Positions 4,609-41,870 of a stretch of DNA of 64,000 nt are shown piece by piece. Both the position numbers and the translations under genes were made by a program. The stretch is from Owenia fusiformis. Lineage: Eukaryota. The notes under the pieces were generated by a model, which saw only the letters and a list, made by a program, of their open reading frames with translations, was not told the DNA's origin and searched no databases. The DNA lies in NCBI GenBank assembly GCA_903813345.2, contig CAIIXF020000001.1, forward strand, positions 13,888,001-13,952,000. The letters run 5' to 3'. The first letter of the stretch is position 1; every line of letters begins with the position of its first letter.

Positions 4609-4708
4609 TATGTAGCGAAAGGATATAATCCTATCCTAAATGGTCTTTTCCTATACAGTATACAATTATAACCACTGTGTTTATATTATGATATATCTAC
4701 TGTTTCAG

Positions 4709-4899: not shown

Positions 4900-5064
4900 G
4901 TATGCACGCTTAAATGTGAACTGCTATTCTAAAGATTTTTTGAAATAGCTTTTGTTTGTATAGCTTAGATTTTGTTTTATCAGTACATGTATTCCTTTTC
5001 CACCAAGTGTTAATGGGTTAGGGGCCAAAGGTCTCATATTCTTACTTGTGTGTTATTATTACAG

Positions 5065-6434: not shown

Positions 6435-9400
6435 TTAAGAGTCTAACAAGTCATCATAGACAAATGGTATTCCCTTCATTCTTTCCTTGTAGACTTTATT
6501 AAACAGCTCATTCTGTGCCACAGTAAAGTGTTCTTTCCATCCACCAACTACCCCTGAAATAAATGTAAAATATTTAATAGCAAATCACATATAGTTGTTG
6601 GATCAGGGATCATTAGAATGTTCATTTAGTTGATTTGTATATACTGTATTGTTAAGAATATGAATGCTCAAATATGAAGTTCTCATAGACTGTCATGAAT
6701 ATAGGGTTGGTAAAAATGTTGAAATTTTTGTAGATGTTTTCATACTCCGATCATCAAAGTTCAAGAAATCAGCTCAACTCTGTAAAATTAGTAACAGTGC
6801 TGCTGCATTATGGTTTCATAAAGAACTGAACAATGTCATTTTTTATAAAGGAGTTATAAGTACATTATATCTGAATTGCAATAAAGAACCCTGTATCATT
6901 CTTCAGATTTAAAATGATAATACAGTATGTTTACATTAAATGTGCAGCCTATTAGAGGAATAATGACAGCAGTAGAATAGGTGTAAGATACCCATCCCCT
7001 ATGGGCATAGCCAAAAATGAGGCAGGCGAGGAAATTTCCGCAGAAGAATTTCATATAAAAATATTAATTCAGATATACCAGCATTTTTCAAATAAACTGA
7101 AAATGAAATCTAACAATTGTAATTTTGTCTCATCTATTTTAAGATCTTAGCTATGCCCCCATCCCAGTTACATTTACACCCTTTACTTGGGATAAGATGA
7201 GATAATTATTACATGTTGATAATCATATATTAAAACCTTTTCTGAACATCACATCTGCCCCTCTTCCATCTCTTGCATATGGTTCGTATTATTTATTGCG
7301 AGACTTCATGACATCAATCTTTGTTTCATCAATGATTTGCTTATAGTCTTCTTCACCCCTGCTTACACCTATATATTCAGCTATCTTCTTTATGGTACCA
7401 AGTGTATCCTTAAAATATACATTTTCATCAATTAACCTATTAAATTAAAGTTGGATTTAATTGATTGATGTCTACATGGGGAAAATATTGAGGTACAGTG
7501 TGACATTTTGTTATTGAATGCTTATTTGAACAAGGGAGTTCATTTTTCATGTTATAATTCCTCATTATCCTACTGAACAAAGTTTAAGAACATTTTCCAA
7601 GGTGGCGGAATTCAAAATGGCCACCATTTCTTTATGAAAGAAATGTAATTTATGATCAATGAAATACCAGCTTTCGGATTTGATTCAAAATTTAGAGGCT
7701 GAAGTATTATGGGAATAGGACCTCTGTAGGACAAGCAAATTCCAATATGGCAACTTAATTCAAAATGGCTGCCACTTTTGAAATATTTTCAATGATGAGT
7801 GATTTAATAAATGTAGGGTGGTCCTAAAATATTACTCAATAAAGTCCCATTTCCAAAAACAAATACAACTAAAATGAACTACATCATTACTGGAACACCA
7901 TTTTACGAATATGTACCTTTTGAATCCCCTAATATTTAAAGAAATCACCATATGATACTGACATTTTTGGTTTCTTCATAAGTGAGGAACAGCATATCTA
8001 CATTTTCTGCTAGTTTCTTGTATTCTTGTATATGCTTGAACCAATCATTCCATGCCACTATAAATATAGGATTATACACAGTGTTAGCGAGTGTTGTGTA
8101 AGTGTGTTGAAGGTACAAACTTAAAATTAGAAATAGTCAATGAATCATTTTTTCATTTTTTAATTAAAACTTTCATTTACCAAAAAGGATGTTTAAAACA
8201 TATGGACAGTGCACACAAAAATATATTCAAATGGAAGAAATCAGATGGAAGTGTTTCAAATATATTGAAAATGTCTACATTTGTATGATTTGTGATAACT
8301 ATGACCCTTTTGGCTTTGGGAATTTTTACACATTATTATTTTTAACCCTATACATTACATCCTTTATGATTGAGGGACATGGGGTATAAATAGGAGGCAG
8401 ACAAATGGAACAGCCAAAATAACTGTATTTTTGATATTTTCACTAAGCTGGTCAATTTTCTCATATTTCATATTGATTGAGAAGATGTATTGCTTCCAAT
8501 TTTGTTATGTGTATCTTTCAATGTTTTCAAGTTCGTATTCTGCAGTTTGATTTCAACTTCATCATTTTGTTGGATTGTGATAGGACATTTAAAAACACTG
8601 ATAACATTTTTCAAATTTAAAAGTCCTCAAGATTGGCCAATCAAAATCAAGTATTTAGCAATGCTGTTTATTAAACTTACTAATCTTGACTATCTGTGCC
8701 AAAGTGTGGATGTAAGCTGATATTTTAATGAGAGTTGCTAGCCTTTAAGAAAACAATCTATGAATTCTTATTTTACCTTCTCCTTTAAGCCAATTAGGCA
8801 AGTAACCTTCCCATGTTCCGTTGTAGCCATAAAGAATTGATGCTAAATAATACTTGTATGAGCTATATGCTGCATCTTTGGGGTGACGCACAAGGTTGAT
8901 CGCCTTGCACTCGCTGGAATATTATTAGATGATATTTATCTGCAATTCAGTGCTAAAATGACACAAGTGATATTTTCCTCAATGGCACAAAATCTTATTT
9001 GAGATGTACATTTAGGTAATTTTGAATATTATGGAGTATTATTTAAAAACATTTTAAAGTTGATTTTTTATCAGTAGATGCCTTAACCTTTCAGATGGTA
9101 TATCTTATTAGAGGATACCATATTCTCTCAAATGAGTGCACAGTTCCAATGAGAGCACATGCTACTTTTATTTTGAATATGGTCTCAATAAAACACAAAG
9201 TTTAATGCATTATCCCACCAAACAAAGTTTGAAGGGATATAGAGCAGCTGCCCATCTATTTGTTTATTCGTTTGTTTGTCTGGACGATAACTGAAATACC
9301 AGTTGACAGATTTGGTTCAAATTTTATAGGCCTATGCCTTATGAGTGTAGGACCTCTGCTTGAGAAGTGTTTTTCATTATTACTGCTCAATTCTAAATGG

Positions 9401-12400
9401 CCACCGTCACCATTTTTTGTGAAAATGTTACCTTTACATGTAATAACTCAAATACCAGAAGAAGATGGAAGCTCAATTAAAAAATGGCTGCCATTTTTGT
9501 AAAAAACATAATATTTGATGATGAAATATCAATGGACAGATTTGGTTGAAATTTTACATACTGGTGATTGACATGGGTGTAGATCTTGCCGAAGGAGACA
9601 ATACTACTCAATTATTATTTCAACTTTTTTTTCTATCATGTACAGTTCAAAATGACAATGTAGTCTTTAAAATATGTTACCTTTGGTGGAATTTGCTACT
9701 CCATTGAGTTGGTGTTTTCTAGTTTTGATTATTAACACAATTAGATATTGATTGATGATTATATTTAACACTCATTAGGGAGAATATGGTAGTAATAAAG
9801 TTTGATAATTCTCTAAACCTCTCAAATCTTGCACTTAGAAAATAACAAGATTCTCCACATAATCCTGGAGAGAGCAATATGCCTATGTGCATAAATTGTC
9901 TTACTTCCATACTGTCTTTGGAATTGAACTTGGTAGTTGGTGTGTTCTGATAATTCTGGGAGAAGGCACTGAACCTATGACATTCTGTGTCGCTGACTCA
10001 GGCATACAGAACTCTTCCATACCCTTAGGGGCCTCTTGTAGTTCATGTGTCAGCCTGTATACTATATTCCATATCCAATGCTGCCCTTTAGAAAATCAGA
10101 GAATGATATATATATCATAGGTTAGGGGCCTCTTATAGTTCATGTGTCAGCCTGTATACTAAATTCCATGTCCAATGGTTCCCTTTGTAAATACAGAGAA
10201 TGATGTATAAGTCAGTTAGTCAAGGCCATAGCTGGGTTCAAAAATTAGGGGGAGTAGATTAGCTTTTATTCCAGGGTTAGAAAACAGCACCCTGACTACC
10301 AATGGCAAAAACCTGCCATTGCTGACTGCCAATGGCAAACACCTGCCGTTGCTGACTGCAAGTGGCAAACACCTGCCAATGGTAAACACCTGCTATTGCT
10401 GACTACCGATGGCAAACACCTGCCATTGCTGACTGCCAATGGCAAACACCTGCCATTGCTGACTACCAATGGAAAACACCTGCCATTACTGATTGTCAAT
10501 AGCAAACACCTGCCATTGGTGCCAATGGCAAACACCTGCCATTGCTGACTGCCAATGGCACACATCTGCCATTGCTGACTGCCAATGGCAAACACCTGCC
10601 ATTGCTGACTACCAATGGCAAACACCTGTCATTGCTGACTGCCAATGGCAAACACCTGCCATTGCTGACTGCCAATGGCAAACACCTGCCATTGCTGACT
10701 ACCTATGGCAAACACCTGCCATTGCTGACTGCCAATGGCAAACACCTGCCATTGCTGACTACCAATGGCAAACACCTGCCATTGTTATTGATGCCATTTT
10801 TGAACGTCAATGACAAACACCTGCCATTGCTGACTGCCAATGGCACACACCTGCCATTGCTGACTACCAATGGCAATCACCTGTCATTGCTGACTGCCAA
10901 TGGCAAACACCTGTTATTGCTGACTACCAAGGCAAACACCTGCCATTGCTGACTGTCAATGGCAAACACCTGCCATTGCTGACTGCCAATGGCAAACACC
11001 TGCCATTGCTGACTGCCAATGGCAAACACCTGCCATTGCTGACTACCAATGGCAAACACCTGCCATTGTTATTGATGCCATTTTTGAACGTCAATGACAA
11101 ACACCTGCCATTGCTGACTGCCAATGGCACACACCTGCCATTGCTGACTACCAATGGCAATCACCTGTCATTGCTGACTGCCAATGGCAAACACCTGTTA
11201 TTGCTGACTACCAAGGCAAACACCTGCCATTGCTGACTGTCAATGGCAAACACCTGCCATTGCTGACTGCCAATGGCAAACACCTGCCATTGCTGACTGC
11301 CAATGGCAAACACCTGCCATTGCTGACTACCAATGGCAAACACCTGCCATTGCTGACTGCCAATGCCAAACATCTGCCATTGCTGACTACCAATGGCAAA
11401 CACCTGCCATTGCTGACTGCCTATGGCAAATACCTGTTATTGCTGACTACCAATGGCAAACACCTGCCATTGCTGACTTCCAATGGCAAACACCTGCCAT
11501 TGCTGACTGCCTATGGCAAATACCTGCCATTGCTGACTACCAATGGCAAACACCTGCCATTGCTGACTGCCAATGGCAAACACCTGCCATTGCTGACTGC
11601 CTATGGCAAATACCTGTTATTGCTGACTACCAATGGCAAACACCTGCCATTGCTGACTGCCTATGGCAAATACCTGTTATTGCTGACTACAAATGGCAAA
11701 AACCTGCCATTGCTGACTGCCTATGGCAAATACCTGTTATTGCTGACTACCAATGGCAAACACCTGCCATTGCTGACTACAAATGGCAAAAACCTACCAT
11801 CACTGACTGCCAATTGCTGACTGCCAATGACAAACACCTGCCATAACTGTCTGCCAATTGTGAACACCTGTTATTGATGACTGCCAATGGCAAACACCTG
11901 CCATTGCTGACTGCCAGTGGCAGATACCTGCCATTGCTGACTGCCAATGGCAAACACCTGTCATTGCTGACTGCCAATGGCAAACACCTGTTATTTCTGA
12001 CTGCCAATGGCAAACACCTGCCATTGCTGACTGCCAATGGCAAACACCTGCCATTGCTGACTGCCAATGACAAACACCTGCCAATGCTGACTGCCAATGG
12101 CACACACCTGCCATTGCTGACTGCCAATGGCAAACACCTGCCATTGCTGACTGCCAATGGCAAACACCTGCCATTGTCATTGATGCCATTAACAATGACA
12201 TTGCTGCTTAATGATCAATAGACTAAATGCATTGTCTTCAACCTTAGTTGTAAGTGTCCTTATTTTCAACCATTGTTTCAGGAGCAAGGCATTCTTCTTT
12301 GGTCTGATTTATTAAACTAAAATCTGGAATATCTTGTGTTGATTTTGTTCTTATTTTTTATAAGTCAACCCTAAAAACAACATTAAATATAATTTCTCAC

Positions 12401-12783
12401 ATTGCTTTTCTTTTTTCTAATTCTAAATAGTGCCTGAAAAAGATTAACAGTAGGCTTTAAATTTAAAAAAACAATAACATATCATGATGTTAAAATCAGT
12501 ACTACTCGGATAGCAAATCAAGAAAAACAATAAAATAAAGTCAAACAATAATGCATTACTTACCAGACCTTGGATATGAAAAGAACCATATGTCATCAGC
12601 CCTGACTTCAAAATCTTTCATTTAATCATGAATCGTTGGTCTAATAAACTGTGGATAGATATATCCATCTACTTTGTGTACAGGGAATGGTTCTCCCAGA
12701 TCATCCTTTATGATTGTAGGTGTTCCTTTAGTGACAACCATATCATCAAAAATGCCACCAACTGCATAGTTTATTTCTGCCAT
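6435..12783 (-). pseudogene. Cytosolic sulfotransferase copy A, two nonsense codons
   Basis: Exons 12783-12564, 10085-9905, 8913-8777, 8057-7963, 7408-7237, 6553-6435 with GT/AG; TAA at 12622-12624 (TAC in copies C and D) and TAA at 7289-7291 (GAA in B, C, D). Confidence 0.88.
10292..12180. repeat. 30-bp minisatellite (CCAATGGCAAACACCTGCCATTGCTGACTG)n, ~60 units, SULT A intron 1
   Basis: Period-30 tandem array; internal 284-bp higher-order duplication (marker GTTATTGATGCCATTTTTGAACG at ~10784 and ~11068). Confidence 0.95.
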
Positions 12784-13744
12784 TTTCACCCAGTCCTCTG
12801 TACTATCAAGGCAGTTATATCCTTTTCTATTGACATGCCATGTCAGTTTGTCCTACACAGGTTCAATTAAAGGTGTAGTATGCCCATATATGATTGCCAG
12901 AATTGAAAATTAAATGGCAAGAAAGGTATTTTTAAGTTTTCCCCTTTACTTCTAATGCTATAGTTATTAAGTTACATAGTAAATTAAGATGTTCCAATGA
13001 GGTAGCCAGGAAGAAAAAAGCGACGAGGCGAAAAATATTTCCAAACCTTGCCTTGCTTTCCTGGCAATAGAAGGACATAATGATAAACCTTACTTAATGA
13101 GATTGTTTACAATTGAATCAAAAATTGATGATTTAAGTGCTTAAAACACATATCAAGAAAAAGGATGAGTGTGCTAAGATGCATTAATTGTGAGTATTAA
13201 CTATAAAATTGAAACAAGCTTTCAAGAGTTCCTTGCAATACAAACACCAAAACACAACATGTTATCAGATATGAGTGTACACTTACACTTTAATTGACAG
13301 GCAAGTCCCTATTTAGAACATGTTGAAGTTTTATAATGGAATTACTAATTAATTACTAATAGTTTCAATTATTGTAGAGCCCATTTTGGCAGTTAGTGAT
13401 ATTTGTAGATAGAGGGGTGTTTAAAAGCATAATATACCTGTTATAAGTTATGCGTCTCAACAAATTTTTATACCAATAAAAAGATAAGACTTCATATTTG
13501 ATTATGTTTTTTATCTATCCTTTTTTTAGATTAGCATTTATTCTAAATGGGTATCAATTTATGATGGCTGCCATTTTCTGTGAAATAAATTTTTGGCTCT
13601 TTACCTTCTTGAATTTTTTTCATATTTTTAAAGATAAGGTCTGATTCTACCTTTTAATAAACGCCTAGAATATCAAAATCATGCAATGTACATATATTTT
13701 TATCAAAAACTATCTCTCATCTAGTTAATGATTAAGATGTCTTA

Positions 13745-14010
13745 TGTAAACATGTGTCAGTATCATATGTTTAAGAAAATCTAAACGTTTGCGAACAAAT
13801 AGTTCAGAAGATGATAGAATCATTGATATAACACATCACTTCTGTTACTTAAACGGAGCTTCAAAAATGGTTAAGATGTGAACTTTTAATCCCAGATCTG
13901 TTCACTTGATAATAGTGAGGTATTGTATCGATGATTCTGTCATCTTCTAAATTATTTGCTTGCTTGCTTGTAGATTTCTTAAACATATGATACTTACACA
14001 CGTTTATCTT
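13745..14010. mobile_element. Fold-back MITE-like element
   Basis: AGTATCATATGTTTAAGAAA at ~13758 and its inverse TTTCTTAAACATATGATACT at ~13975, with further imperfect pairing inward. Confidence 0.65.
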
Positions 14011-14911
14011 GGAAATTCTACCTACAACTCGTGAAATAAAGAAAAAAGAAAAATCGTACCTTCTAGTACTATTCTAGCCAAGGGTGGAGTACCAGTGTAC
14101 ATGAACTGTAACAGTAGTTTCATCATAGTTAATGATTATGTTAATTTGCATAATTTCCTACTTGTAATAAGACTATTAATATGCCAGAGGTTCAGATTAT
14201 CAGGAAAACAATACTAGACATGAATGGCAAGTTTTTTGAAAAATTACTAGTATGAGTTTTTACTAGTATTTCCAATTACTTGTAATTGAAAGTTAAACTT
14301 GCAAGAAATCTCCAGGGCCTATCAAACTCCCATTTGGTTTGGGCATTCCGCTTCCTACTGACCCCATGATTGACATTATCATTGCTGGCATTGTCCATTT
14401 TGACCAGGAATTTATCCATTTACACTATTTTCGGACAAATTTTGAGTTTCAACTGTTTTACAAAACATCCCATAATTTCATCGGAAACCGTATAATGCGC
14501 TTGAACGGGATACAGGTTAATTGGGCAAAATATTTGCATAGATTTTTCAGGCAACCATTCCTTGGGTTATATCCTATATTGTATGTTTGTAAAACACCTG
14601 AAATCTTGCAAGAAAAGTTTTTATCGGAAAAACTTTTGGAAGAACTTCTCTATATTTAACAAACATGTGGTTAAACAGGGCTGGTTAAAGCTACAAATAA
14701 AGGAGTTGGGCAAGAGTTGGAATCATTCTGAATACAACTTCATGTAGTTCCGGTCCATGTCAAACTTATACAAATGGCGAGTACATTGTATTTGGAAATT
14801 TTTTCTTGTATTTGTCAAATTACTTTTAAAATTACAAGTATATGAATGGGGATCTGAAACTGTGATAAATACCACTATTTTTGTTCAGTAATATCAAAAC
14901 TGTTGTAAAAT

Positions 14912-15280
14912 TACATATTCTTAAGCGTCTAACAAGTCATCATAGACAAATGGTATTCTCTTCATTCTTTCCTTGTAGACTTTATTAAAAAGCTCATTCT
15001 GTGCCACAGTAAAGTGTTGTTCCATGTTTTTTGTCAAATAACATTCTTAAGAGTCTAACAAGTCATCATAGACAAATGGTATTCCCTTCATTCTTTCCTT
15101 GTAGACTTTATTAAAAAGCTCATTCTGTGCTACAGTAAAATGTTGTTACGTGTTTTTTGTCAAATAACATTCTTAAGAGTCTAACATGTCATCATAGACA
15201 AATGGTATTCCCTTCATTCTTTCCTTGTAGACTTTATTAAAAAGCTCATTTTGTGCCACAGTAAAGTGCTCTTTCCATCC
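14912..15280. repeat. 126-bp tandem triplication of most of the SULT B terminal exon
   Basis: Stop-codon TTA (+ strand) recurs at 14921, 15047 and 15173 with the same adjacent exon-6 sequence. Confidence 0.9.
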
Positions 15281-18200
15281 ACCAACTACCCCTGAAATAA
15301 ATGTAAAATATTTAATAGCAAATCACATATAGTTGTTGGATCAAGGATCATTAGAATGTACATTTAGTTGATTTGTATATACTGTATTGTTTAGAATATG
15401 AATGCTCAAATATGAAGTTCTCATAGACTGTCATGAATATAGGGTTGGTAAAAATGTTGAAATCTTTGTACACTGTAGATGTTTTCATACTCCGATCATC
15501 AAAGTTCAAGAAATCAGCTCAACTCTGTAAAATTAGTAACAGTGCTGCTGCATTATGGTTTCATAAAGAACTGAACAATGTCATTTTTTAAAGGAGTTAA
15601 AGTATTTTTGAATTGCAGTAAAGAACCCTGTATCATTCTTCAGATTTGAAATGATAATGCAGTATGTTTACATTAAATATGCAGCCTATTAGAGGAATAA
15701 TGACAGCAGTAGAATAGGTGTAAGATACCCATCCCCTATGGGCATAGCCAATCATGAGGCAGACAAGACTATTGCCACAGAGGGATTTTATATGAAAATA
15801 TTAATTCAGATATACCAGCATTTTTCAAATAAACTGAAAATGAAATCTAACAATTGTAATACTTTATATTCACTTCAGCTATTGTAAATTGTCTCATCTA
15901 TTTTAAGATCTTAGCTATGCCCCCATCCCAGTTACATTTATTTCCCACCCTTTACTTGTGATAAGATGAGATAATTATTACATGTTGATAATCAAATATT
16001 AAAACCTTTTCTGAACATCACATCTGCCCCTCTTCCATCTCTTGCATATGGATCGTATTCTTGATTGCGAGATTGTATAACATCAATCTTTGTTTCATCA
16101 ACCATTTTCTTGTAATCTTCTTCACTCCAACTTACACCTAAATAGTCAGCTATCTTCTTTATGGTACCAAGTGTATCCTTAAAATGTACACATCCATTGA
16201 TTACCCTATTCTTTATTTGATTGATTGATTTATGTATATGAGGGATATAACGAGGAATACCATTTTGATCTTAACTGCTTATTCAATCGAGATTGGGAGT
16301 TCATTTTCATGGTACATTTACTCACTATCCCACTGAACAAATTTTAAGAACATTTTTCAAGGTGGCTACTGAATTCAAAATGGCCACCATTTTTATGAAG
16401 AAATGTATTTTTTGATCAAATAAATACCAGTAATTGGATTTGATACAAATTTTAGAGGCTTTTTGTGCACAGTGTTCAGCGTTTGGTAGTCAGCATATGT
16501 AAGAATGGCATTTGATGACACTTTGCATGTTAATGCCTTATTGTGAAAATTCATATATTGAATCTCTTTGAATTAAAAAAATCACTGTACTATACTGACA
16601 TTTTTGGTTTCTTCATAAGTAAGGAACAGCATATCAACATTTTCTGCTAGTTTCTTGTATTCTTGTACATGCTTGAACCAATCATTCCATGCCACTATAA
16701 ATATAAGATTATCCAGTGTTAGTTAGTGTTGTATAAGTGTGTTGAAGGTACAAAAATTAGAAATAGTAAATGAATTATTTTTTCATTTTTCTTTATTAAA
16801 CAAGAATATAATACTACATGTATATAAAGGAAGAAATCAAAGGAAATTGAAGTGTTTCAAATTTACTGTAAATGTCTACATTTGCATGAATTGCGATGTC
16901 CTTTTTGGCTTTATTATCCTATCGAACAAAGTTCTGAGGGATATAGGGAACCCCTCCGTCCGTTAAGCTCTTCTGAGCCTGGAGGCCGTGTTCCCAGCAA
17001 AGTAGGTGTCGCTTAAATTGGCCAAACACGGGACACAGTGGTTTGATATGGCACATTGGTGAGGTATACCACATGGCTAAGAATAAAATAAATACCAAAT
17101 AATAGAAGAACAAAGAGTTAAAAGAATAAAGATATTCTCAATCTAACAATACAAGCAGCCACCTCAAGACAACCATCTGTAAGTTTTTTTTACTATAATT
17201 CGAAAAAGTACTGGAGTGATTTTGTTCATATTTGATATGTGAATATAATAAGCATGGCACACTGTCTAATGACATTTTGATTAGTAGGTGGCCATTTTGA
17301 AAAATGGCCGTCATTTACATGTGCGTGTGTGCGATTTTGTTAAAATTTTATATGTTCCTACTTACATGTAGAAGCATATTACACATTCTGACAATAATTT
17401 GACTAGTGAGCAACCATTTTGAAAATGGTCGTCATTTTTGTGTGTGTTATTTTATGATTTTTGCTATATACTTCGTTTGTAAAAATGCCAGCCATATCAC
17501 TTCTATGGGATTGATTGGGTAGGCTTTGGTGTTGCTGTTTTCTAGTTTACATTATTATTTTCAACCCTATACATTACATCCTTTATGATGTTAAGAAAAT
17601 AATCTAGTTATTTTACCCTCTCCTTTAAGCCAGTTAGGCAAGTAACCTTCCCATGTGCCATTATAGCCATAAACAAGTGCTGCTGAATGGTGCTTGTATA
17701 AACTATATGCTGCATCTTTGGGATGACGGACAATGTTGATCACCTTGCACTTGCTGAAATATTATAAGTTAATATTTATATCTATACACTGCAATTCAAT
17801 GCTAAAATGACACAAAAGTGATTTTTTCCTAAATGGCAAAAAATCTCATATGATAATATGTACTGATTTTATCAGTAGATATCTCAACCTTTTAGATGGT
17901 ATCTATTATTATAGGATACCATATTCTCTCTAATGAGCACACAGTTCCAATGAGAGCACATGCTACTTTTATTTTGAATATGGTCTCAATAAAACATGAA
18001 GTTTAATGCATTATCCCACCAAACAAAATTTGTAGGGATATAGAGTTCTGGATAAATGGAAGCTGAATTAAAACATGGCTGACATTTTTGTAAAAAAACA
18101 TAATATTTGATAACTGAAATATCAATGGCAGATTTGGTTGAAATTATACATACCGATGATCGACATTGGTATACAGTAGATCTTTGCCAAAGGAGACAAT

Positions 18201-20167
18201 ATTACTCAACTGTTTTTCCTATTTAAGATAGTCCTTAAAATATGTTTTGTTTGGTGGGATTTGCTACTCCATGGAGTGGCTGTTTTCTAGTTTCGATTAT
18301 TTACACAACTATATATTGATTGATGATTATATTTAACTTTCATTAGGGAGAATATGGTAGTAATAAAGTTTGATAATTCTAAACTTCTTTAATCTTGCAA
18401 TAATAAAGAAAATAACAAAATTCTCCACACAATCCTGGAGAGAGCACTTATGCCTATGTGCATAAAATGTCTTACTTCCATACTGTCTTTGGAATTGAAC
18501 TTGGTAGCTGGTGTGTTCTGATAATTCTGGGAGAAGGCACTGAACCTATGACATTCTGTGTCACCAACTCAGGCATACAGAACTCTTCCATACCCTTTGG
18601 GGCCTCTTGTAGGTCATGTGTCAGCCTGTATACTATATTCCATGTCCAATGCTGCCCTTTGTAAATAGAGAGAATTAAATGATGTACAAGTCGGTAAGTC
18701 AAGGCCATACCTAGGATCAAAAATTTGGAGAGGTTGATAAAGTTTTTATTACAGAGTTTGAAAACAGCAGCCTGGCTGTCAATGACAAACACCTGCCATT
18801 GCTTACTGCCAATGGCAAACACCAACCATCACTGACTGCCAATGGCAAACACCTGCCATTGCTGACTGCCAATGGCAAACACCCATCATCACTGACTGCC
18901 AATGGCAAACACCTGCCATTGCTGACTGCCATTGGCAAACACCTGCCATTGCTTATTGCCAATGGCAAACACCCACCATCACTGACTGCCAATGGCAAAC
19001 ACCTGCCATTGCTGACTGTCAATGGGAAACACCTACCATTGCTTACTGCCAATGGCAAAAATTGCCATTGTCATTGTTAACTGCCAAAGGCAAACACCTG
19101 CCATTGCTAACTGCCAATGGCATACACCTGCCATTGCTGACTGCCAATGGCAAACACCTGCCATTGCTAACTGCCAATGGCAAACACCTGCCATTGCTGA
19201 CTGCCAATGGCATACACCTGACATTGCTGACTGCCAATAGCAAACACCTGCCATTGCTGACCGCCAGTGGCAAACACCTGCCATTGCCATTGATGCAATT
19301 ACAATACCATTGAATAAACAAGTTGCTACAAGGTTAATGGTCAATAGACTGAATGCTAACATGTTAAGTTATGAGAACAATGTATTCAACCTTAGTCATT
19401 AACCTTACTTTATTTACATCTACATGGGCATATATTAACGGCTGCATTTACTTGATAGATTTGCCAACCATATAGTGTCCTTATTTTCAACCATTGTTTC
19501 AGGAGCAAGGCATTCTTCTTTGGTCTGATTTATTAAACTAAAATCTGGAATCTTGTGTTGTTATTGTTCTTATTAAAGGATTTAAGCCCTGAACTCAGTG
19601 CATTGTTTGCTGAATCATACCATGAAGGTGTTGTTTCCAAACCTTTGCATGACTGCGCAGGGGGAATGCAAAGTTTAGGAAACAACGCCTGAGTGGAATG
19701 AAGCAGCTACAATGCATTGAGTCTTGGGCTAAATTATTTTCACACATTGCAAATTTTTTCTCTATAAAATCATCTAAAAGGAACAAAACACTAAAAGAAC
19801 ACATTTTCAATGACATTTTTTGCAAGGGTCAAGTTGGCACGTCATCAAATCCAATGTGAAAAATCCATTCATCACCATGACAACTGTTTAACTAGTGACC
19901 TTGCATGTGTTATTGATATTTCACACCAACAACAATGCATAACTTACCAGACCTTGGATATGAAAAGAACCATATGTCATCAGCCCTGACTTCAAAATCT
20001 TTCATGAAATCATGAATCGTTGGTCTAACATACTGTGGATAGTTATATCCGTCTACTTTGTGCACAGGGAATGGTTCTCCCAGATCATCCTTTATGATTG
20101 TAGGTGTTCCTTTAGTGACAGCTATATCATCGAAAATTCCACCTACTGCATAGTTTATTTCTGCCAT
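15173..20167 (-). CDS. Cytosolic sulfotransferase copy B, apparently intact, 307 aa
   Basis: Exons 20167-19948, 18656-18476, 17753-17617, 16694-16600, 16177-16006, 15291-15173 (220+181+137+95+172+119=924 nt); motifs [15 protein letters not shown] (5'-PSB), [17 protein letters not shown] (3'-PB), FLTYEE, FRKGVVGGWK. Confidence 0.92.
16913..17548 (+). mobile_element. Related HINE-like element in SULT B intron 3 (shorter relative at ~30202-30400 in copy D)
   Basis: Same termini: TATCCTATCGAA...GGGATATAGGGAAC at the 5' end and TTCTATGGGATT...GTTGCTGTTTTCTAGTTT at the 3' end. Confidence 0.65.
18773..19290. repeat. Same 30-bp minisatellite, ~17 units, SULT B intron 1
   Basis: Same unit at the same intron position. 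Confidence 0.93.
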
Positions 20168-26490: not shown

Positions 26491-26857
26491 CTGACTACCA
26501 ATGGCAAAAACCTGCCATTGCTGACTGCCAATGGCAAACACCTGCCATAGCTGACTTCCAATGGCAAACACCTGCCATTGCTGACTGCCAATGGCAAACA
26601 CCTGCCATTGCTAAATACCAATGGCAAACACCTGCCGTTGCTGACTGCCAATGACAAACACCTGCCATTGCTGACTGCCAATGGCAAACACCTGCCATTG
26701 CTGACTGCCAATGGCAAACACCTGTTATTGCTGACTGCCAATGGCAAACACCTGCCATTGCTGACTGCCAATGGCAAAGCACCTGTTATTGCTGACTGCC
26801 AATGGTAAGCACCTGCCATTGCTGACTGCCAATGGCAAACACCTGCCATTGCCATTG
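26491..26857. repeat. Same 30-bp minisatellite, ~12 units, SULT C intron 1
   Basis: Same unit at the same intron position. Confidence 0.93.
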
Positions 26858-28933: not shown

Positions 28934-31900
28934 TTAAGCGTCTAACAAGTTGTCGTAGACAAATGGTATTCCCTTCATTCTTTCCTTGTAGACTTTATCA
29001 AAAAGCTCATTTTGTGCCACAGTAAAGTGTTCTTTCCATGCACCAACTTCCCCTGAAATAAATATAAAATATTTAATAACAAATCACATATAGTTGTTGG
29101 ATCAGGAATCGTTTGAATGTACATTTATGAGGCAGACGAGATTTGCCGCAGAGGAATTTCATATGAAAATATTAATTCAGATATACCAGCATTTTTCAAA
29201 TAAACTGAAAATGAAATCTAACAATTGTAATACTTTATATTCACTTCAGCTATTGTAAATTGTCTCATCTATTTTAAGATCTTAGCTATGCCCCCATCCC
29301 AGTTACATTTATTTCCCACCCTTTACTTGGGATAAGATGAGATAATTATTACATGTTGATAATCAAATATTAAAACCTTTTCTGAACATCACATCTGCCC
29401 CTCTTCCATCTCTTGCATATGGATCGTATTCTTGATTGCGAGATTGTATAACATCAATCTTTGTTTCATCAACCATTTTCTTGTAATCTTCTTCACTTCA
29501 ACTTACACCTAAATAGTCAGCTATCTTCTTTATGGTACCAAGAGTATCCTTAAAATGTACACATCCATTGATTACTCTATTAAAATTTATATGATTGATT
29601 GATTTATGTATATGAGGGATATAACGAGGTATGCCATTTTGTTCTTGACTGCTTATTCGATCAAGATTGAACAAGGGACGAGTTCATTTTCATGGTACAT
29701 TTTCTCATTATCCCACTGAATGAATTTCAAGAAAATTTTCCAAGGTGGTTACTGAATTCAAAATGGCAACCATTATTATTAAGAAATGTATTTTTCGATC
29801 ATTTAAATACCAGTAATTGGATTTGATACAAATTTTAGAGGCTTTTTTGTGCACAGTGTTCAGCTTTTGGTAGTCGGCATATGTAAGAATGGCAGGTGAT
29901 GACACTTTGCATGTTAATGCCTTATTGTGAAAATTTATATTTTGAATCTCTTTGAATTAAAAAAATCACTGTACTATACTGACATTTTTGGTTTCTTCAT
30001 AAGTAAGGAACAGCATATCAACATTTTCTGCTAGTTTCTTGTATTCTTGTACATGCTTGAACCAATCATTCCATACCACTATAAATATAAGATTATCCAG
30101 TGTTGTATAAGTGTGTTGAAGGTACAAAAATTAGAAATTACAAATAGTAAATGAATTATTTTTTCATTTTTTTCATTAAAGCTTTTATTTGCCAAAAAGC
30201 TTATTATCCCATCGAACGGTGTTCGGAGGGATAAAGGGAATGCCTCCGTCCATCCATCTGTCCGTCCGTCCATCCGTCCGTCTGACTGTCCATCCATCCG
30301 TACGTACGTCCGTGTTACAATTTTTGCTTCGTTTGTAAAAATGCCAGCCATGTCTGTTCTATGGGATTGGCTAGACTTTGGTGTTGCTGTTTTCTAGTTT
30401 ACATTATTATATTCAACCCTATACATTACATCTTATTGATGCTAAGAAAACAATCTATGAATTCTTTTAAGTGATTTTACCCTCTCCTTTAAGCCAATTA
30501 GGCAAGTAACCTTCCCATGTGCCATTGTAGCCATGAACAAGTGCTGCTGAATGATGCTTGTATAAACTATATGCTGCATCTTTGGGATGACGGACAATGT
30601 TAATCGCCTTGCAATTGCTGGAATATTATAAGTTAATTTTTATATCTATACACTGCAATTCAGTGCTAAAATGACACAAAAGTGATTTTTTCCTCAATGG
30701 CACAAAATCTTGTATGAGGTATGCATAGAGGTAATATTTAATATGATGGAGTATTATTTAAAAAACATTTGAAGATGATTTTTTTTTCAGTACATGTTTC
30801 AACCTTTCAGATGGTATATCTTATTAGAGGATACCATATTCTCTCTTAAATGAGCACACAGTTCCAATGACAGCACATGCTACTTTTATGTTGAATATGG
30901 TCTCAATAAAACATGAAGTTTAATGCGTAATCCCACGAAACAAAATTTGTAGGGATATAGAAAAGATATCTATCCATTCGTTTGTTCATTTGTTTGTCTG
31001 GATGATAACTAAAATACAAGTTGATTGATTTGGTTTTTTACAGGCCTATGCCTAATGAGTGTAGGACCTCTGCTCGAGAAGTGTTTTATTCATTATTGAT
31101 GCTCAATTCAAAATGGCCAATACCACCATTTTTGTGAAAATGTAACCTTTACATTTAATAACTCAAATACCAGTTGACGGATTTGGATTTGGTTCAGATG
31201 CCTTGGGACATTGGAGTTCAGGATAAATCAAAGCGCTGAATTAAAAAATGGCTGCCATTTTTGTAAAAAACATAATATTTGATAATGAAATATCAATTTA
31301 CAGATTTGGTTGACATTTTACATACTGGTGATTGACATGGGTGTAGATCTTGCCGAAGGAGACAATACTAATTAACTATTATTTCAACTTTTGTTTCTGT
31401 CATGTACAGTTCAAAATGACAAGATAGTCTTTAAAATATGTTTCCTTTGGTGGAATTTGCTACTCCATGGAGTGGCTGTTTTCTAGTTTCGATTATTTAC
31501 ACAACTAGATATTGATTGATGATAATATTTAACGCTCATTAGGGAGAATATGGTGGTAATAAAGTTTGATAATTCTCAACCTCTAAAATCTTGCACTTAG
31601 AAAATTACAAGATTCTCCACACAATCCTGGAGAGAGTAATATGCCTATGTGTATAAAATGTCTTACTTCCATACTGTCTTTGGAATTGAACTTGGTAGTT
31701 GGTGTGTTCTGATAATTCTGGGAGCAGGCACTGAACCGATGACATTCTGTGTCTCCAACTCAGGCATACAGAACTCTTCCATACCCTTCGGGGCCTCTTG
31801 TAGGTCATGGGTCAGCCTGTATACTATATTCCATATCCAATGGTTCCCTTTGTAAATACAGAGAATGATGTATAAGTCAGTTAGTCAAGGCCATAGCTAG

Positions 31901-32938
31901 GATCAAAAATTAGGGGGAGTAGATTAGCTTTTATTCCAGGTTTTGAAAACAGCACCCTGACTACCAATGGCAAAAACCTGCCATTTCTGACTGCCAATGG
32001 CAAACACCTGCCATTGCTGACTGCCAATGGCAAACATCTGTTATTGCTGACTGCCAATGGCAAACACCCATTGCTGACTGCCAATGGCAAACACCTGCCA
32101 TTGCCATTGATGCCATTAACAATGACATTGCTGCTTAATGGTCAATAGAATGAATGCTAACATGTTAAGTTATGACAACAATGTCTTCAACCTTAGTTGT
32201 ATGTGAACCCGACTATAGGCATATATTAACGCCTGCATTTACTTGATAGCTTTGCCGACCATAGTGTCCTTATTTTCAATCAACCATTGTTTTAGGAGCA
32301 AGGCATTCTTCTATGGTCTGATTTATTAAACTAAAATCTGGAATATCTTGTGTTGTTATTGTTCTTATTAAAGGATTTAAGTCCTGAACTTAGTGCATTG
32401 TTTGCTGAATCATACCATGAGTTTTGTTTTCCACAGCGGGAATGCAAAGTTTAGGAAACAATGCCTGAGTGGAATGAAGCAGCTACAATGCATTGAGTCT
32501 TGTGCTAAATTATTTTTACACATTGCAAATTTTTTCTATATAAAACCATCTAAAAGGAACGAAATCACTAAAAGAACACATTTGAAATGACATTTTTTGC
32601 AAGGGTCAAGTTGGCAAGTCATCAAATCCAATGTGAAAAATCTATTCATCACCATGACAACTGTTTAACTAGTGAATGTGTTATTGATATTTCACACCAA
32701 CAACCATGCATAACTTACCAGACCTTGGATATGAAAAGAACCATATGTCATCAGCCCTGACTTCAAAATCTTTCATGTAATCATGAATCGTTGGTCTAAC
32801 AAACTGTGGATAGATATATCCATCTACTTTGTGTACAGGGAATGGATCCCCAAGATCATCCTTTATGATTGTAGGTGTTCCTTTAGTGACAAGTATATCA
32901 TCAAATATGCCACCAACTGCATAGTTTAATTCTGCCAT
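28934..32938 (-). pseudogene. Cytosolic sulfotransferase copy D, in-frame TGA in exon 5
   Basis: Exons 32938-32719, 31847-31667, 30617-30481, 30078-29984, 29548-29377, 29052-28934; TGA at 29498-29500 where B, C and E have TGG. Confidence 0.85.
31957..32108. repeat. Same 30-bp minisatellite, ~5 units, SULT D intron 1
   Basis: Same unit at the same intron position. Confidence 0.92.
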
Positions 32939-33799: not shown

Positions 33800-35246
33800 T
33801 TCAGGTTTCTCATAAGTTTCATAATAGGCAGAGATTTCGATCTACCTTTGTTAATAATAGCAACTGTTGCTTCGTTGTCACAAACGAAAATTACATGTTT
33901 CTTTACCTATAGATGTGACCATAGTATAGCCGCAACTACCATGGGATATAACTCTAGAAAAGCCATCGACAGGTCGCCACGCTCGACTTCGGGCCCGGGA
34001 CTTCGGGTAATCTAGGCCACATTGAGTAAAAATACTGATTCTGGTAGACACCACCGAAGCCAAGCGTAGATGACGCGTCGGTGTGAAGGCTTATATCAGA
34101 TGACAAGGAGAAAAAGTGATCATAGAACATATTAACACCGTTCCATTGTAATAGGAAATATTTCCACATTGTTAGATCTTCAATGCAATGCCTATCGAGT
34201 GAAACCAATGAGAACATTTCTTTGACTGTCATGGATAGCTTGATAAGATAAGAGACAAAAGAACGTCCCGGTTTGATAACTCTTGAAGCAAAGTTCAAAT
34301 GTCCGAGTAGCTGTAGCAGCTCCTTTTTATCAATGCGTCTTTTATCAATGATATCCTTCATAAAAATAACGATGCGCTGTATCTTATCCTCTGGTAGCCG
34401 CGCTTCCATTTTATCCGAATCTAGAATGATTCCCAAGTATTCGATGCATGTTGTAGGTCCCAGGCATTTGTGGGCGGCAAGGGGGATTTTAAGTACGTTA
34501 AAAATCTGTGTCATAATGGCCATGGTTCTAAGACCGGTATCGGGATCACCTTCGATTGTTAGAAAATCGTCCAAGAGGTGTATTACAAAATCGACGTTAT
34601 ATTTGTGCTCCGCGATCCAACATACTGCCTGAGATATATTGTCAAAGATTTTTGGCGATGATCTGCATCCGAAACACAGCCGTGGACACACGTAGTAGTT
34701 TCCCATCCATTTTACACAGAAAAGATGCCATTGCCTTGGATCAATAGGGATGATTTTAAAAGCATCCTGGATGTCGAATTTACACATCATTGATTTTTGG
34801 CCTCTTTTAATAATCCCCCTAATCGCATCATCTATGGTAACATAGCTTAGAGAACATGCGTTTTTGTCTATGAGATCGTTTATACTTTCAGAATCGGAAT
34901 CATCGTGGGGTGACGACAGGTCAACAATAAGCCGTTTTTTGTTGGAATATTTTCCAACTGCTATGCCGACTGGACTTACCCTAAATGTTTTAAAGGGTGG
35001 TGTTTTGAAAGGGGCGAGAACATATCCTTTTTCTAGTTCCTTCTTTAATAACTCCGTAGTTGCCGCCGGTTGTTTCCTAGCCGAAAGAAGGTTACGGCAT
35101 TCGAGTGTCGGCAATTGAATTTCGCTTACCATGGTGTCAAAACCGTTTGCAAGTCCAGTACAAAGATATTGCACGAAGTTTTTGTCTGGGTGCATTTTTA
35201 ACTCGGATGCTAATTTTTTGACGTTCACAGGAGTGGACGCTACCAT
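33800..35246 (-). pseudogene. DIRS/Ngaro RT-RNase H, frameshift and stop within RNase H
   Basis: 430-aa ORF 33954-35246; RNase H continues in another frame (SMAFLELYPMVVAAILWSHL*...CDNEATV). Confidence 0.88.
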
Positions 35247-35261
35247 GAGATTAGGTTCTAG

Positions 35262-36367
35262 TCAGTTATTTCCACTTTTAGTTACGGAATTGACATCAGC
35301 GGTTTCAGACGTTTGTTTTGTAACGTGTGCTCTATTGCAATCTGCATATGTGCAACCACGGGAACTATTGAAATTATTACAAATCTCCCTGCCATCTTTG
35401 CATTGTATTGAGCGGCCTCTCATATCCTTTGAGCAGTTGAGCATTTTGCTTCCTGTTGACGAAGAGCTAACATGTGTCTTGACGTTGTCGCTGATCTTAC
35501 TGTTCAGTACAAGTTGCCATAAGTCCGAATTTCTGCAGCCCCAATCGACCTTTATTTGCAGATTTATCCAGGCAGCCATGCCTGGGAACTGAAACGCTTA
35601 TGGTACTCATAGAATTTTGGGCCAGGGTAGGAGTTATAAAGTTCTAAAATACCATGCTGGTATCTATCAAGCTCATCGCGTCTTCCTGGGAATTTTTCAC
35701 ACATCACCCTTTTATACTTGTCAAACGCTGTGATAAATTCGGCGATGTTAAGAGAGACTTTAAGCTTTGGGTCATTGTCCATGTTGATGGGCTTCAGACA
35801 GAGTTTTCCGTCATCATCCGTATCTAATGCTGGTGTTTTCGAAAGTTCGTAATACGGCGATAGCAAACATGCTAAGTTGACATATTTCCCGGATTGTATC
35901 GCCTTTCTAACCCCGGGTGAAATAATGTCTACAATAGGTAAAGAATTCGGGTGAATACCTTTGGAACCGAGGCCTGCTGATGATGATCCATCTCGTGGTC
36001 TGGGCTCTTTCGCCGCTGAATTCTCTATTTGCTCAGCTGAGCCAGCAGCGAACGGTATGTTCCGTTGGTTAACAAGGGAACTCACGACGTCAGTAAGATT
36101 TTCGACCTTATTTTCAAGATCTTTGATAATTCTTCTTTCTTCAGACATTACTTGTACGGGAGGTACGATAGGGCCGATTTCGATTTCATCCTGCTCCTCA
36201 GATGGTATAATCCCGTCGTTAGCTTCATCATTCATAACATTGTCCATATACAAGTTTCTCAACGCTGTGAGCAAAATCTTTTTCTTAATCTTTATCCCTA
36301 TGTCTGACAATTCTTCCTTCATATGTTCTGATGAAGGATAGGAAATACGTCGGTTTTTAGGTGGCAT
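35262..36367 (-). pseudogene. DIRS/Ngaro gag-like ORF, frameshifted near 35580
   Basis: ORFs 35564-36367 and 35262-35579 join across a frameshift (...RFSSQ / AAWINLQIKVDWG...); C-terminal CNNFNSSRGCTYADCNRAH Cys/His motif. Confidence 0.75.
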
Positions 36368-36495
36368 GATATTTGTGTTTGTGATGAATAATCAACTTTG
36401 AAAAATGTTTAAATCTCGTTGTGTCGTTCGCTACTTCGAAAAACTGAATGAATGATATCTTAAGATAGAATGGATGTTCAATTGTTTGGAACATT

Positions 36496-37626: not shown

Positions 37627-37868
37627 CCTACAGATCCATAACTTTTAAACTCCAGGGCTTACTGAACTCCATCTGCTTCCTACTGACCCCATGATTGACA
37701 ATATCCTTGCTGGCATTGACCTTTTTGACCAGGAATTTATCTATTTACAGTATTTTCGGACAAATTTTGAGTTTCAGCTGTTTTACAAAACATCCCATAA
37801 TTTCACCGTAAACTGTATAATGTGCATGAACGGCATACAGGTTAATCGTGTAAAATATTTATAATATA

Positions 37869-38648: not shown

Positions 38649-38986
38649 TAGATTTTGCAGCCAACTTTTCTCGGGGTTATATCCTATATGTTTGTAAAAC
38701 ACCTGAAATCTCGCAAAAAAAGGTTTTTATTGGAAAAACTTTGGAACCTTTGGTAAGAACTACTTTATATTTGACAAAACTTGTGATTAAACAATCATTC
38801 TGAATACAACGAGTTTCGGGACCATGTCATACTCGTATGGATGGCAAGTATTTTGAAATTTTTTCTCGTATTTGTCAATTAATTACAAGTTATACGAGTG
38901 GTGATCTGAACCTCTGATAAATACCACTATTTTTGTTCAGTAATATCAAAACTGTTTGAGATGTTTTTGTAAAATGACATATATTC

Positions 38987-41870
38987 TTAAGAGTCTAACA
39001 AGTCATCATAGACAAATGGTATTCCCTTCATTCTTTCCTTGTAGACTTTATTAAAAAGCTCATTCTGTGCCACAGTAAAGTGTTCTTTCCATGCACCAAC
39101 AACCCCTGAAATAAATATAAAATAAGTAAAAGAAAAATTAGAATGTAATTGATTTACATGTATATTATTATTCTATTGTATAATCAGATTGCTCAAATAT
39201 GGAGTTCTTATAGGTGGTCATGAATATATACCTACTTTACAGTATTTTTTATTGTTGTTTTATTTGTTTTAATTATCTTAATTTTTATCAAAGTTCAAGA
39301 AATGTCCGTTCCGCACTTTATTTATAAGAAGACCAGACCTTTCGTCACTTTTTATGTTGTCATGGAAATATGGGTGAATTAACCATGCACACACCCCAGT
39401 AACATTAACAGTGCACCCTTTGTATTTGATAATCATCATATTTCAAAACCTTTTCTGAACATTCCATCTGCTCCTCTTCCATCTCTAGCATAGGCATCAT
39501 ATGTTTTATTGCGAGACTGCATGACATCAATTTTTGTTTCATCAATGATTTTTTTATAGTCTTCTTCACTCCAGCTTACACCTATATAGTCAGCTATCTT
39601 CTTTATGGTACCAATTGTATCCTTAAAATGTACATATCCATCAATTAACCTTTTAAAATTGATTTGATTGTTATATGTATGAGGGATATAATTAAGTATA
39701 AGCTTTTGTTACTGCAGGAGAGTTCATTTTCATTGTACAATGTTAATTGTTAGTACCTCAGTTGAAATACTCGATTTTGATTGGTCAACGTGCAGTGAAT
39801 AATTTTAACTGTACACCGCGCAATGCATTGCCGGTGAATAATATTCCCAGCATTCCACTAAAATGACGTCATTATCAGACGATAAAATGGCCGCCGCTAG
39901 CACTAGCCTTTTCAAAAATGTTGAAGATGAGGATATTATTAGTCTCTTAGAGAGTAAAGACAGTCAAAATACGAAGAAAAATCTAAAACTTTGTACAAAG
40001 CTTTTAGTGGACTTCGCCCAGGAGAGTAATTTGACTCCATTGAGTGAACTTACTGCCGTGGCAGATATCAAAATAGCATATTGTGCTTGAAATACAACAT
40101 GAACGTCTCGAGGGTCTGGATCCAACTTCAAGTCAACTTCAAGGGTCAGAAAAATCTAAGATATTCTTCGGACTAACAAAACAATTATAGACCTCTCCAT
40201 TTGGTTTACTGTCAAAATTATATCCCTCGACTGTAAACCTCGACCTACGGTCTCGGTTTACAGTCTCGGGATATAATTTTGACAGTAAACCTCTGGAGAG
40301 GTCAATAATTGTATATTATCCCACTGAACAATGTTCAAGACAATTTCTCAAGATGGCAACTGAATTCAAAATAATGGCTACCATATTTTATTAATTTTAC
40401 CTCTAGAATGCTGAATTTCATCATTCTGGAATACCATTTTATGAAATGTACCTTTTGAATCCCCTGATATTTAAAGAAATTACCATATAATACTGACATT
40501 TTTGGTTTCTTCATAAGTGAGGAACAGCATGTCAACATTTTCTGCTAGTTTCTTGTATTCTTGTACATGCTTGAACCAATCATTCCATGCCACTATAAAT
40601 ATAAGATTATACAGTGTTAGTAAGCATTGTAGAAGTATGTTGAAGGTGTAAGAATAAGACATTACAAAATAGAGAATGAATTATGTTCAAGAGCAGGGTT
40701 GGAAACTCCCAGCTGCTTGACTGTCAAATTATAATGGCAATCATATTTCACTCTCAGTGTTTTACCTTCTCCCCTAAGCCACATTGGCAAATAACCTTCC
40801 CATGTGCCATTATAGCCATAATAAAGCGCTGCTGTTTGATGTTTGTAGAAACTATATGCCGCATCTTTGGGATGGCGCACAATGTTGATCATCTTGCACT
40901 TGCTGGAATATTAATAAATAATATTAAAGGTACACCGAAATTCAATGCCAAAATGATACTTAAAAGTACCGTGTCGAAGCGGGTTTGTAACGGCACTAAC
41001 ATAATTCAATGTTGAGACGACACCAAATCATATTAGGCAGCTGTGTACAGAGAGTTATGTTGACTATTATACTGACATTTCATTTGAAAAACATTTTAAA
41101 GTAGATACTTCAAAACCTGGTATAAATATTAGAGGATAGTGTCCAATTTTTGGTGATTCTCAACCCATAGGTTCTACATGACATTTATGTAATAAAAGTG
41201 CATTAATGCATTAAAGAAGAAACGGTATGTGTGTTTATTCAGTAATAGTATGAACCATCCCACCAAAATATTTTTAGATAATTAAGACCTGGTCTAATAT
41301 CATATGCCTATGTGCATAAATTGTCTTACTCCCATACTGTCTTTGGTATTGAACTCGGCAACTGGTGTGTTCTGATAATTCTGGGAGAAGGCACAGAGCT
41401 TATGACATCATGTGGTACTAACTCTGGCATACAGAAAGCCTCCATACCCTTAGGAGCCTCTTGTAGGTCATGTGTTAGCCTGTATACTATATTCCATGTC
41501 CAATGCTGCCCTTTGTAAATACAGAGAATGATTTAATTTAGTCTGGAGTCTATTTCTTGGAAACATATCTTTAATTATGACTTGCAGATTCAATTGTCCT
41601 CTTATTAGCTTTTTTGGTCCACTATTATAATAAAATAATATGTTTCTTACCAGACCTTGGATATGAAAATAACCATATGTCATCAGCCCTGACTTTAAAA
41701 TCTTTCATCTCATCATGAACTGTTTGCCTAATATTCTGTGGATATGTGAATCCATCTACTATATGTACAGGGAATGGTTCTCCCAGATCATCCTTTATGA
41801 TTGTAGGTGTTCCTTTAGTGACAACAATATCATCAAATATGCCACCAACTGCATAGTTTAATTCTGCCAT
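38987..41870 (-). CDS. Cytosolic sulfotransferase copy E, apparently intact, most divergent copy with a compact intron 1
   Basis: Exons 41870-41651, 41510-41330, 40902-40766, 40592-40498, 39621-39450, 39105-38987; same exon sizes and motifs, no stop seen; intron 1 is only 140 nt. Confidence 0.92.
39745..40315 (+). mobile_element. Crypton-like internally deleted element in SULT E intron 4
   Basis: Absent from intron 4 of paralogs; ORF start [34 protein letters not shown] resembles Crypton N-termini as I recall them; long terminal palindrome 40187-40308. Confidence 0.6.

Follow-up and report, generated by a model that had tools for sequence, protein, structure and literature searches.

The 64,000-nt stretch of DNA analysed here, hereafter the window, belongs to the annelid Owenia fusiformis (contig CAIIXF020000001.1, positions 13,888,001-13,952,000, forward strand; all coordinates below are window-based) and holds a tandem array of SULT-like (cytosolic sulfotransferase) copies together with exons of the VPS13B gene on either side of it. 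Splicing and comparing the copies, and mapping VPS13B orthologues on the window, led us to consider it very probable that five SULT1-like paralogues, lettered A to E, lie antisense in one phase-0 intron of VPS13B in a state of birth-and-death, with copies B and E intact.

Organisation of the array

A six-frame motif scan gave five minus-strand matches to a motif starting with G(V/E)VG(A/G), at 6534, 15272, 22279, 29033 and 39086. Self-BLAST showed that a unit of gene plus spacer is repeated five times in tandem over ~6.4-42.7 kb of the window, with a non-coding identity from unit to unit of ~73-91%, locally up to 97%. Using the six exon peptides of copy E as tblastn queries, we recovered 33 high-scoring segment pairs (HSPs) within 6438-41870, every one on the minus strand, delimiting five units that each contain one match per exon 1-6. 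The 3 surplus HSPs corresponded to the second piece of a frameshifted exon 6 in copy C, an exon-6 relic (14924-15022) and an exon-2 relic (10121-10204).

Exon ends were fixed by the ATG or an AG on one side and by a GT or the stop codon on the other. Exon sizes are 220/181/137/95/172/119 nt in A, B, D and E, with a last exon of 118 nt in C, and GT-AG borders were observed at 25/25 introns across the five copies. The arrangement given in a preliminary description of this locus, five head-to-tail minus-strand copies of six exons with these sizes, proved exact according to tblastn and splice sites, as did its array limits, with A's stop codon ending at 6435 and E's ATG beginning at 41870. Listed from high to low coordinates, the exons of copy A lie at 12783-12564, 10085-9905, 8913-8777, 8057-7963, 7408-7237 and 6553-6435; those of copy B at 20167-19948, 18656-18476, 17753-17617, 16694-16600, 16177-16006 and 15291-15173; those of copy C at 27523-27304, 26278-26098, 25278-25142, 24830-24736, 22936-22765 and 22298-22181; those of copy D at 32938-32719, 31847-31667, 30617-30481, 30078-29984, 29548-29377 and 29052-28934; and those of copy E at 41870-41651, 41510-41330, 40902-40766, 40592-40498, 39621-39450 and 39105-38987. 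Intron lengths vary widely, with gene spans of 6349, 4995, 5343, 4005 and 2884 bp from A to E, and the A-B, B-C, C-D and D-E spacers measure 2389, 2013, 1410 and 6048 bp.

We rejected the possibility that the copies are assembly duplicates, since their exons differ by 1-22% and their aligned non-coding sequence by ~9-27%; differing intron lengths, minisatellite copy numbers and one repeat insertion also rule it out. The preliminary description had treated the copies as distinct, and this was upheld by the same differences, read depth being uninformative on the point.

Part of the array is already represented among public proteins. Exon 2 of copy E as query retrieved 6 proteins, 6/6 from O. fusiformis. 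The copy E model is identical to P0001 (NCBI 'unnamed protein product [Owenia fusiformis]'; 100% identity over 307 aa), and residues 1-227 of D are identical to the annotated P0005 (227 aa, ending at D's stop; 100% identity), while the closest database protein to copy B is P0001 at 88.3%, with no identical protein among the database matches. At least 2/5 array loci, E and a truncated D, are therefore public gene models, contrary to the earlier expectation that gene predictors would miss the array. According to the genome paper (PMC9977687), gene models with in-frame stops were filtered from the Owenia annotation. The remaining proteins, P0002, P0003, P0004 and P0006, come from other large contigs (40.8, 39.8 and 35.8 Mb); with paralogues on at least three other large contigs, the SULT family is therefore dispersed in Owenia.

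Integrity of the copies

Translation of the spliced models revealed an open 307-codon frame in B and E only (2/5 copies). Copy B (15173-20167, minus) and copy E (38987-41870, minus) have intact open reading frames, E being the most compact copy with 2884 bp. By contrast, A and D are decaying pseudogenes. Copy A (6435-12783, minus) keeps its six exons with correct splice sites and carries two in-frame TAA codons, one at codon 54 (12622-12624), where the other copies read TTC, TAC, TAC and GAG, and a second at codon 251 (7289-7291), where they read GAA or ACA. In copy D (28934-32938, minus), a TGG>TGA change at codon 228 (29498-29500) removes the RKG motif from the product; the codon is TGG in B, C and E and AGG in A. 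This one Trp codon was hit independently in the two decaying copies. Recoding of these stops, including as selenocysteine, was rejected because D's TGA replaces a Trp codon kept in B, C and E, and because A's stops are TAA.

In exon 6 of copy C (22181-27523, minus), a run of T's is short by 1 bp, leading to a stop at codon 294 (22222-22224). The frame shifts past ...TVAQNEL, so that the last 21 residues, conserved in B, E, P0002 and P0006, are gone, whereas all catalytic motifs are retained.

Counts of private changes separated the four closest copies, with 1 synonymous and 15 non-synonymous changes in A, 8 and 4 in B, 9 and 5 in C, and 9 and 14 in D. These counts are consistent with relaxed constraint on A and D, in keeping with their decay. 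The ratio of non-synonymous to synonymous divergence (dN/dS) between pairs of copies ranges from 0.16 to 0.49, and B and E are under purifying selection. For C, the 9 synonymous and 5 non-synonymous changes imply that the lesion arose very recently or is a homopolymer error of the assembly; the copy is accordingly a pseudogene of very recent origin, frameshifted at its C-terminal end, or else a gene that is intact in the animal and carries an indel in the assembly. One could then count three functional genes, B, C and E, with C's deletion either absent from the animal's genome or tolerated in a 293-aa product. The resemblance of C's private changes to those of intact B, the position of the deletion in a T run and the location of the catalytic motifs and of the KxxxTVxxxE segment upstream of it all speak for such a count, whereas the frame is broken as assembled, 21 conserved C-terminal residues are lost, and Illumina polishing had been applied to the assembly. 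On balance, we find three functional genes possible, though unlikely, and keep to the reading in which B and E are the intact members of the array.

History of the array

Pairwise synonymous divergence (dS) is 0.068 between A and C, 0.117 between B and D, 0.16-0.22 for the other pairs among A-D, and 0.27-0.37 between any copy and E. A protein tree was built on 9 rows, namely A-E and four other-chromosome paralogues (P0005 was omitted since it equals D), with a midpoint root for drawing only. This tree recovered A and C as sisters (support 96/92) within an A-D clade (83/93), leaving E outside that clade, at a position among the other-chromosome paralogues that is not fixed. Judging from these divergences and groupings, A-D form a young clade, and E is the oldest copy. 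The preliminary picture of an actively expanding five-gene family is therefore retained as regards the youth of A-D (dS 0.07-0.22) and given up as regards five genes, 3/5 copies being broken and A and D relaxed.

The internal structure of the array is mosaic. Exons 3 and 5 fall into two types by per-exon identity, A/C versus B/D, and self-BLAST puts the spacers A-B and C-D at 91% identity to each other; both features suggest the duplication of a two-gene block. Among quartet-informative sites, 24/26 in exons 3-6 group A with C and B with D, whereas 4/5 in exons 1-2 group A with D and B with C (Fisher p=0.002). Phylogenetic signal hence switches between exons 1-2 and exons 3-6, from which it follows that recombination or gene conversion reshuffled the 5' parts. 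The array most probably grew through duplication of single units and of a two-gene block, later recombination or gene conversion between copies producing the mosaic; its present state is one of birth-and-death turnover, with two intact copies, one doubtful copy and two pseudogenes.

Intron 1 of the four younger copies contains a 30-bp minisatellite whose unit, CTGACTGCCAATGGCAAACACCTGCCATTG, is G+C-richer and holds an inverted repeat. It comprises ~60 units in A (10292-12176), 17 in B (18772-19287), 12 in C (26491-26852) and 5 in D (31957-32104); copy E, with an intron 1 of 140 bp, has none. One may speculate that this minisatellite promotes exchanges between copies.

Protein family and active-site motifs

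The protein encoded by copy E (P0001) matched the Pfam profile Sulfotransfer_1 from position 2 to position 254 of its 255, with 167.7 bits (cut-off 22; E=4.3e-49). Taken singly, exons 3, 4, 5 and 6 match this profile collinearly, and exons 1 and 2 give no match to it. At E<=0.001, P0001 also matched 44 distinct PDB sequences; almost all of them bear the name of a cytosolic sulfotransferase, the best being human SULT1C2 (3bfx, E=2.1e-40), with SULT1A and SULT1B1 also top-ranked. These matches bear out the earlier assignment of the array to homologues of cytosolic sulfotransferases of the type dependent on 3'-phosphoadenosine 5'-phosphosulfate (PAPS). Residues 42-66 of exon 1 (41652-41870, minus) also scored 30 bits against Col_cuticle_N, the nematode cuticle collagen N-terminal domain (gathering score 23.5), which in a full-length SULT is almost certainly a chance match.

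Of the three motifs cited in that assignment, two are present and the third occurs in a variant form. The catalytic His is found in RTHQ, aligned with KTHL of 3bfx, and this residue (H122) is invariant in 6 Owenia paralogues. The 3'-phosphate-binding (3'-PB) motif, RxxKDxxxS, reads RHPKDAAYS in P0001, and RKGxxGxWK reads RKGVVGAWK, divided by intron 5 at the exon 5/6 junction. P0001 further includes a ten-residue segment of the form KxxxTVxxxE, which we take to be the dimer motif of cytosolic sulfotransferases, and shows no hydrophobic or membrane segment, with a maximum 19-aa Kyte-Doolittle score of 1.02. The loop binding the 5'-phosphosulfate (5'-PSB loop) was recovered as a variant only. 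In cytosolic SULTs its canonical form is PKxGTTW with a catalytic Lys; P0001 aligns YPRSGQHW with YPKAGTTW of SULT1C2, placing Arg at the catalytic Lys and Gln-His at Thr-Thr. The variant is kept in 5/5 Owenia paralogues covering the region, D (P0005) having N for Q (PRSGNHW). AlphaFold2, run on the shallow alignment of 6 paralogues, returned an unusable model (mean predicted local distance difference test score 36.4).

The loop bears on whether B and E might be SULT-like proteins with altered catalysis or none, as its PRSGQHW in place of PKSGTTW, with the two replacements relative to SULT1C2, would suggest. Against this, the variant is conserved among all covering paralogues of a family under purifying selection, with the catalytic His and both the 3'-PB and RKG motifs still intact. 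Another sulfotransferase family is also pertinent, and we presume that Arg78 of human TPST2 lies in the PSB loop. The tyrosylprotein sulfotransferases (TPSTs) use a catalytic Arg, Arg78 in human TPST2, as reported in PMC10951654. Loss or alteration of catalysis is therefore improbable in our view. Given the conservation of the variant loop and the catalytic Arg of TPSTs, we infer that B and E are active; they probably encode soluble, dimer-forming PAPS-dependent sulfotransferases. Family membership suggests a detoxification role for the array genes, and small-molecule substrates for their enzymes would be expected.

A more far-reaching proposal would make the PRSGQHW clade a functionally distinct SULT subfamily whose chemistry or handling of the donor has changed, the turnover of the array being driven by the palindrome-containing minisatellite and antisense transcription coupling SULT expression to that of the host gene. 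The minisatellite-bearing intron 1 does sit between exons 1-2 and 3-6, where the phylogenetic signal switches; we nonetheless give this combined scenario a distinctly small chance.

The probable VPS13B host intron

The array occupies 35,436 bp, ~90%, of a probable plus-strand intron of 39,255 bp (5354-44608). The upstream VPS13B exon (5065-5353, plus) has its acceptor, ...attattacag followed by GC, at 5064/5065, and its donor, TTAGAT followed by gtaagt, at 5353/5354 in phase 0. The downstream exon (44609-44776, plus) starts in phase 0 after the acceptor TTGTGTTCCAG, with GGC following, at 44608/44609; its 3' end is uncertain, with donor candidates at 44719, 44728 and 44776. Both intron boundaries thus fall between codons at consensus splice sites, and the phase-0 host exons reported earlier were reproduced without change. 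The other VPS13B introns in the window measure roughly 0.1-1.6 kb, making the host intron 25-400 times longer.

Single plus-strand open pieces at 3.1-5.4 kb and 44.6-48.2 kb gave no VPS13 Pfam match, and the identity of the host gene comes from its homologues. With the exon ending at 5353 as query against 1.84 billion representative proteins, 19 proteins were retrieved at E<=0.001; 11/19 are longer than 3000 aa and were matched at positions ~2000-2700. Three of the matched proteins were scanned, revealing VPS13_N in 3/3 and VPS13_M with VPS13_VAB in 1/3. By their source names, P0010 is VPS13B of Branchiostoma belcheri and P0009 a VPS13B-like protein of Saccoglossus, and VPS13B is likewise the name of almost all of the 120 relatives listed for P0010. 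The ESM Atlas returned VPS13-like clusters only, with a score of 0.82, below the lead threshold.

By tblastn, residues 2027-2672 of P0010 map in order on 3211-48172 of the window, in plus-strand blocks at 3211-3450, 3927-4214 and 4706-5329 on the 5' side of the intron and at 44618-44758, 46719-46844, 47431-47670 and 47921-48172 on its 3' side; ~650 residues' worth of VPS13B exons fall in the window. Residues up to 2395 align upstream of the intron and residues 2407-2453 at 44618-44758. The 11 unaligned residues in between (2396-2406) equal the 8 codons before 5353 plus the 3 after 44609, so that no exon is missing. Block order was the same with P0028 and P0029, the VPS13B proteins of Ptychodera and Polyodon, and none of the three orthologue queries gave a plus-strand VPS13B-like HSP inside 5354-44608 at E<=5. 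The nesting of the SULT array in a single VPS13B intron thus appears well supported by homology and splice signals. As to the preliminary claim of such nesting, the adjacency of the flanking exons in VPS13B orthologues agrees with it, and the transcript join of 5353 to 44609 would follow from homology, phase and splice signals.

Conversely, the array would not be nested if the two VPS13B halves were separate transcription units or the 39-kb insert a mis-join. The unusual length of the intron and the lack of an observed RNA junction would fit such a configuration, whereas the halves share strand and order, have compatible phases and consensus splice sites and miss zero residues relative to three orthologues, and the repeat units run smoothly to both array edges. 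We consider separate halves or a mis-join very improbable and retain the nested arrangement.

Read placement and weight of the evidence

Raw reads bearing the same organism label, from two RNA runs (X16 and X18) and two DNA runs (X19 and X20), were placed on 12200-32199 at 95% likeness. DNA depth was ~0-0.3x in most bins of this interval and uninformative, high read depth being restricted to bins rich in repeats, 22872-24205 and 30876-31542 among them. Most placed reads were 95-99% alike, and 98% of the placed DNA reads continued into unlike sequence. Given the low depth and this run-on, the four runs are evidently too unlike the assembly for placement at 95% likeness, and no SULT or VPS13B splice occurred among the best 15 of 240 joints in this uninformative placement. 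No RNA run was listed as carrying copy B. The four runs may derive from a diverged lineage under one species label. Transcription of any SULT copy is presumed.

Several observations weigh against a birth-and-death array nested in VPS13B with two active members. The source of the nonsense codons and of the indel is a single assembly, made from one male and based on PacBio continuous long reads (CLR), with C's lesion in a homopolymer. RNA evidence was obtained neither for any SULT copy nor for a joining of 5353 to 44609. PAPS activity is not guaranteed, given a PSB loop of non-canonical form; and the A-D clade has moderate support only (83/93), in a tree rooted for display. The reference itself is a Canu assembly of PacBio Sequel (CLR) reads from a single male, with one Arrow and one Illumina/Racon polish, as described in PMC9977687. 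Five functional genes, with the stops and the indel as assembly errors or segregating null alleles, are hardly credible: the GT-AG borders and exon sizes preserved throughout, the pairwise dN/dS below 0.5 and a once-Arrow-, once-Racon-polished CLR assembly, in which short-read polishing can mis-correct between paralogues, are outweighed by the two independent TAA codons of A with its 1:15 synonymous to non-synonymous changes and by the 9:14 of D, which indicate decay and not isolated errors, substitution errors being rare in polished assemblies.

Repeats and mobile elements

Other repeats occur in and around the array. A 126-bp tandem repeat of 2.8 copies (14917-15265) covers exon 6 of B in its 3' part, so that two incomplete relics of this exon lie past B's stop, and a 97-bp tandem repeat of 1.9 copies (10025-10209) duplicates exon 2 of A in its first part, together with the acceptor. 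At 6048 bp, the D-E spacer is 2.5-4.3 times as long as each of the other three because of the insertion of a reverse-transcriptase-bearing repeat element (33954-36391, minus), which has a 435-aa open frame matching RVT_1 at E=8.9e-9. Intron 4 of copy C hosts a 135-bp tandem array of 4.6 copies (23496-24136); the bins holding it reached hundreds-fold DNA and RNA read depth, which suggests a repeat that is present in many copies and transcribed. A 347-bp tandem array of 3.9 copies (42801-44125) lies close to the host intron's 3' end, and open frames with translations like those of this array are also present within the window's first kilobase (~217-950).

Beyond the array, the coding region of a Gypsy-like long terminal repeat retrotransposon (57809-62752, plus) comprises two open frames, one of 620 aa with a SCAN-like gag domain, zinc knuckles and an aspartic protease, and one of 1027 aa with integrase zinc-binding and core domains, reverse transcriptase and RNase H. 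This element sits in the next VPS13B intron or beyond. At 51960-52877 (plus), ~0.9 kb is open in all three plus-strand frames; its translations are repetitive and contain much His, Pro, Ser and Met, and the segment looks like a tandem repeat and not a gene.

Comparison with known systems and implications

The Owenia array genes resemble vertebrate SULT1 (SULT1C2 3bfx, SULT1A1, SULT1B1) in their full-length Sulfotransfer_1 domain, catalytic His, 3'-PB, RKGxxGxWK and KxxxTVxxxE motifs, and in a length of ~300 aa without membrane segment. They differ by their PSB loop, YPRSGQHW versus YPKxGTTW, and by a longer N-terminal region before it; set against vertebrate SULT1, the Owenia genes have six coding exons.

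Expansions of this family are known from other invertebrates. The scallop Chlamys farreri has 83 Sult genes versus 13 in humans, through tandem lineage-specific expansion (PMC5700196), and in Ixodes ticks SULTs expanded by tandem duplication and retroposition (PMC11752866). The scallop and tick expansions share with Owenia a detoxification-type family, local duplication and clusters at several loci. The Owenia array is unlike them in being small (5 units, 2-3 intact) and in lying within a host-gene intron, and its copies keep introns, whereas many Ixodes copies are mono-exonic.

Regarding the position of the array, nested genes account for ~6% of Drosophila melanogaster genes, most often in opposite orientation, according to PMC3786989. 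The tim2/2mit pair described there similarly has an entire coding sequence in one large host intron in opposite orientation. Unlike single nested Drosophila genes, the Owenia intron houses a whole tandem family with pseudogenes and repeat insertions. Our literature searches found no paper describing the Owenia SULT/VPS13B locus, and the word 'sulfotransferase' is absent from the main text of the Owenia genome paper (PMC9977687).

For annotation, these results provide exact models for five SULT loci, three of them marked as broken, including a new model for the intact copy B, absent among the public proteins matched; they also explain the 39-kb VPS13B intron by a resident gene family and repeats. 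The locus opens no long-standing question, and its variant PSB loop is the sole feature of possible enzymological interest. In Owenia, it adds one small annelid example to two well-known themes, the birth-and-death of phase-II detoxification genes and antisense nested genes.

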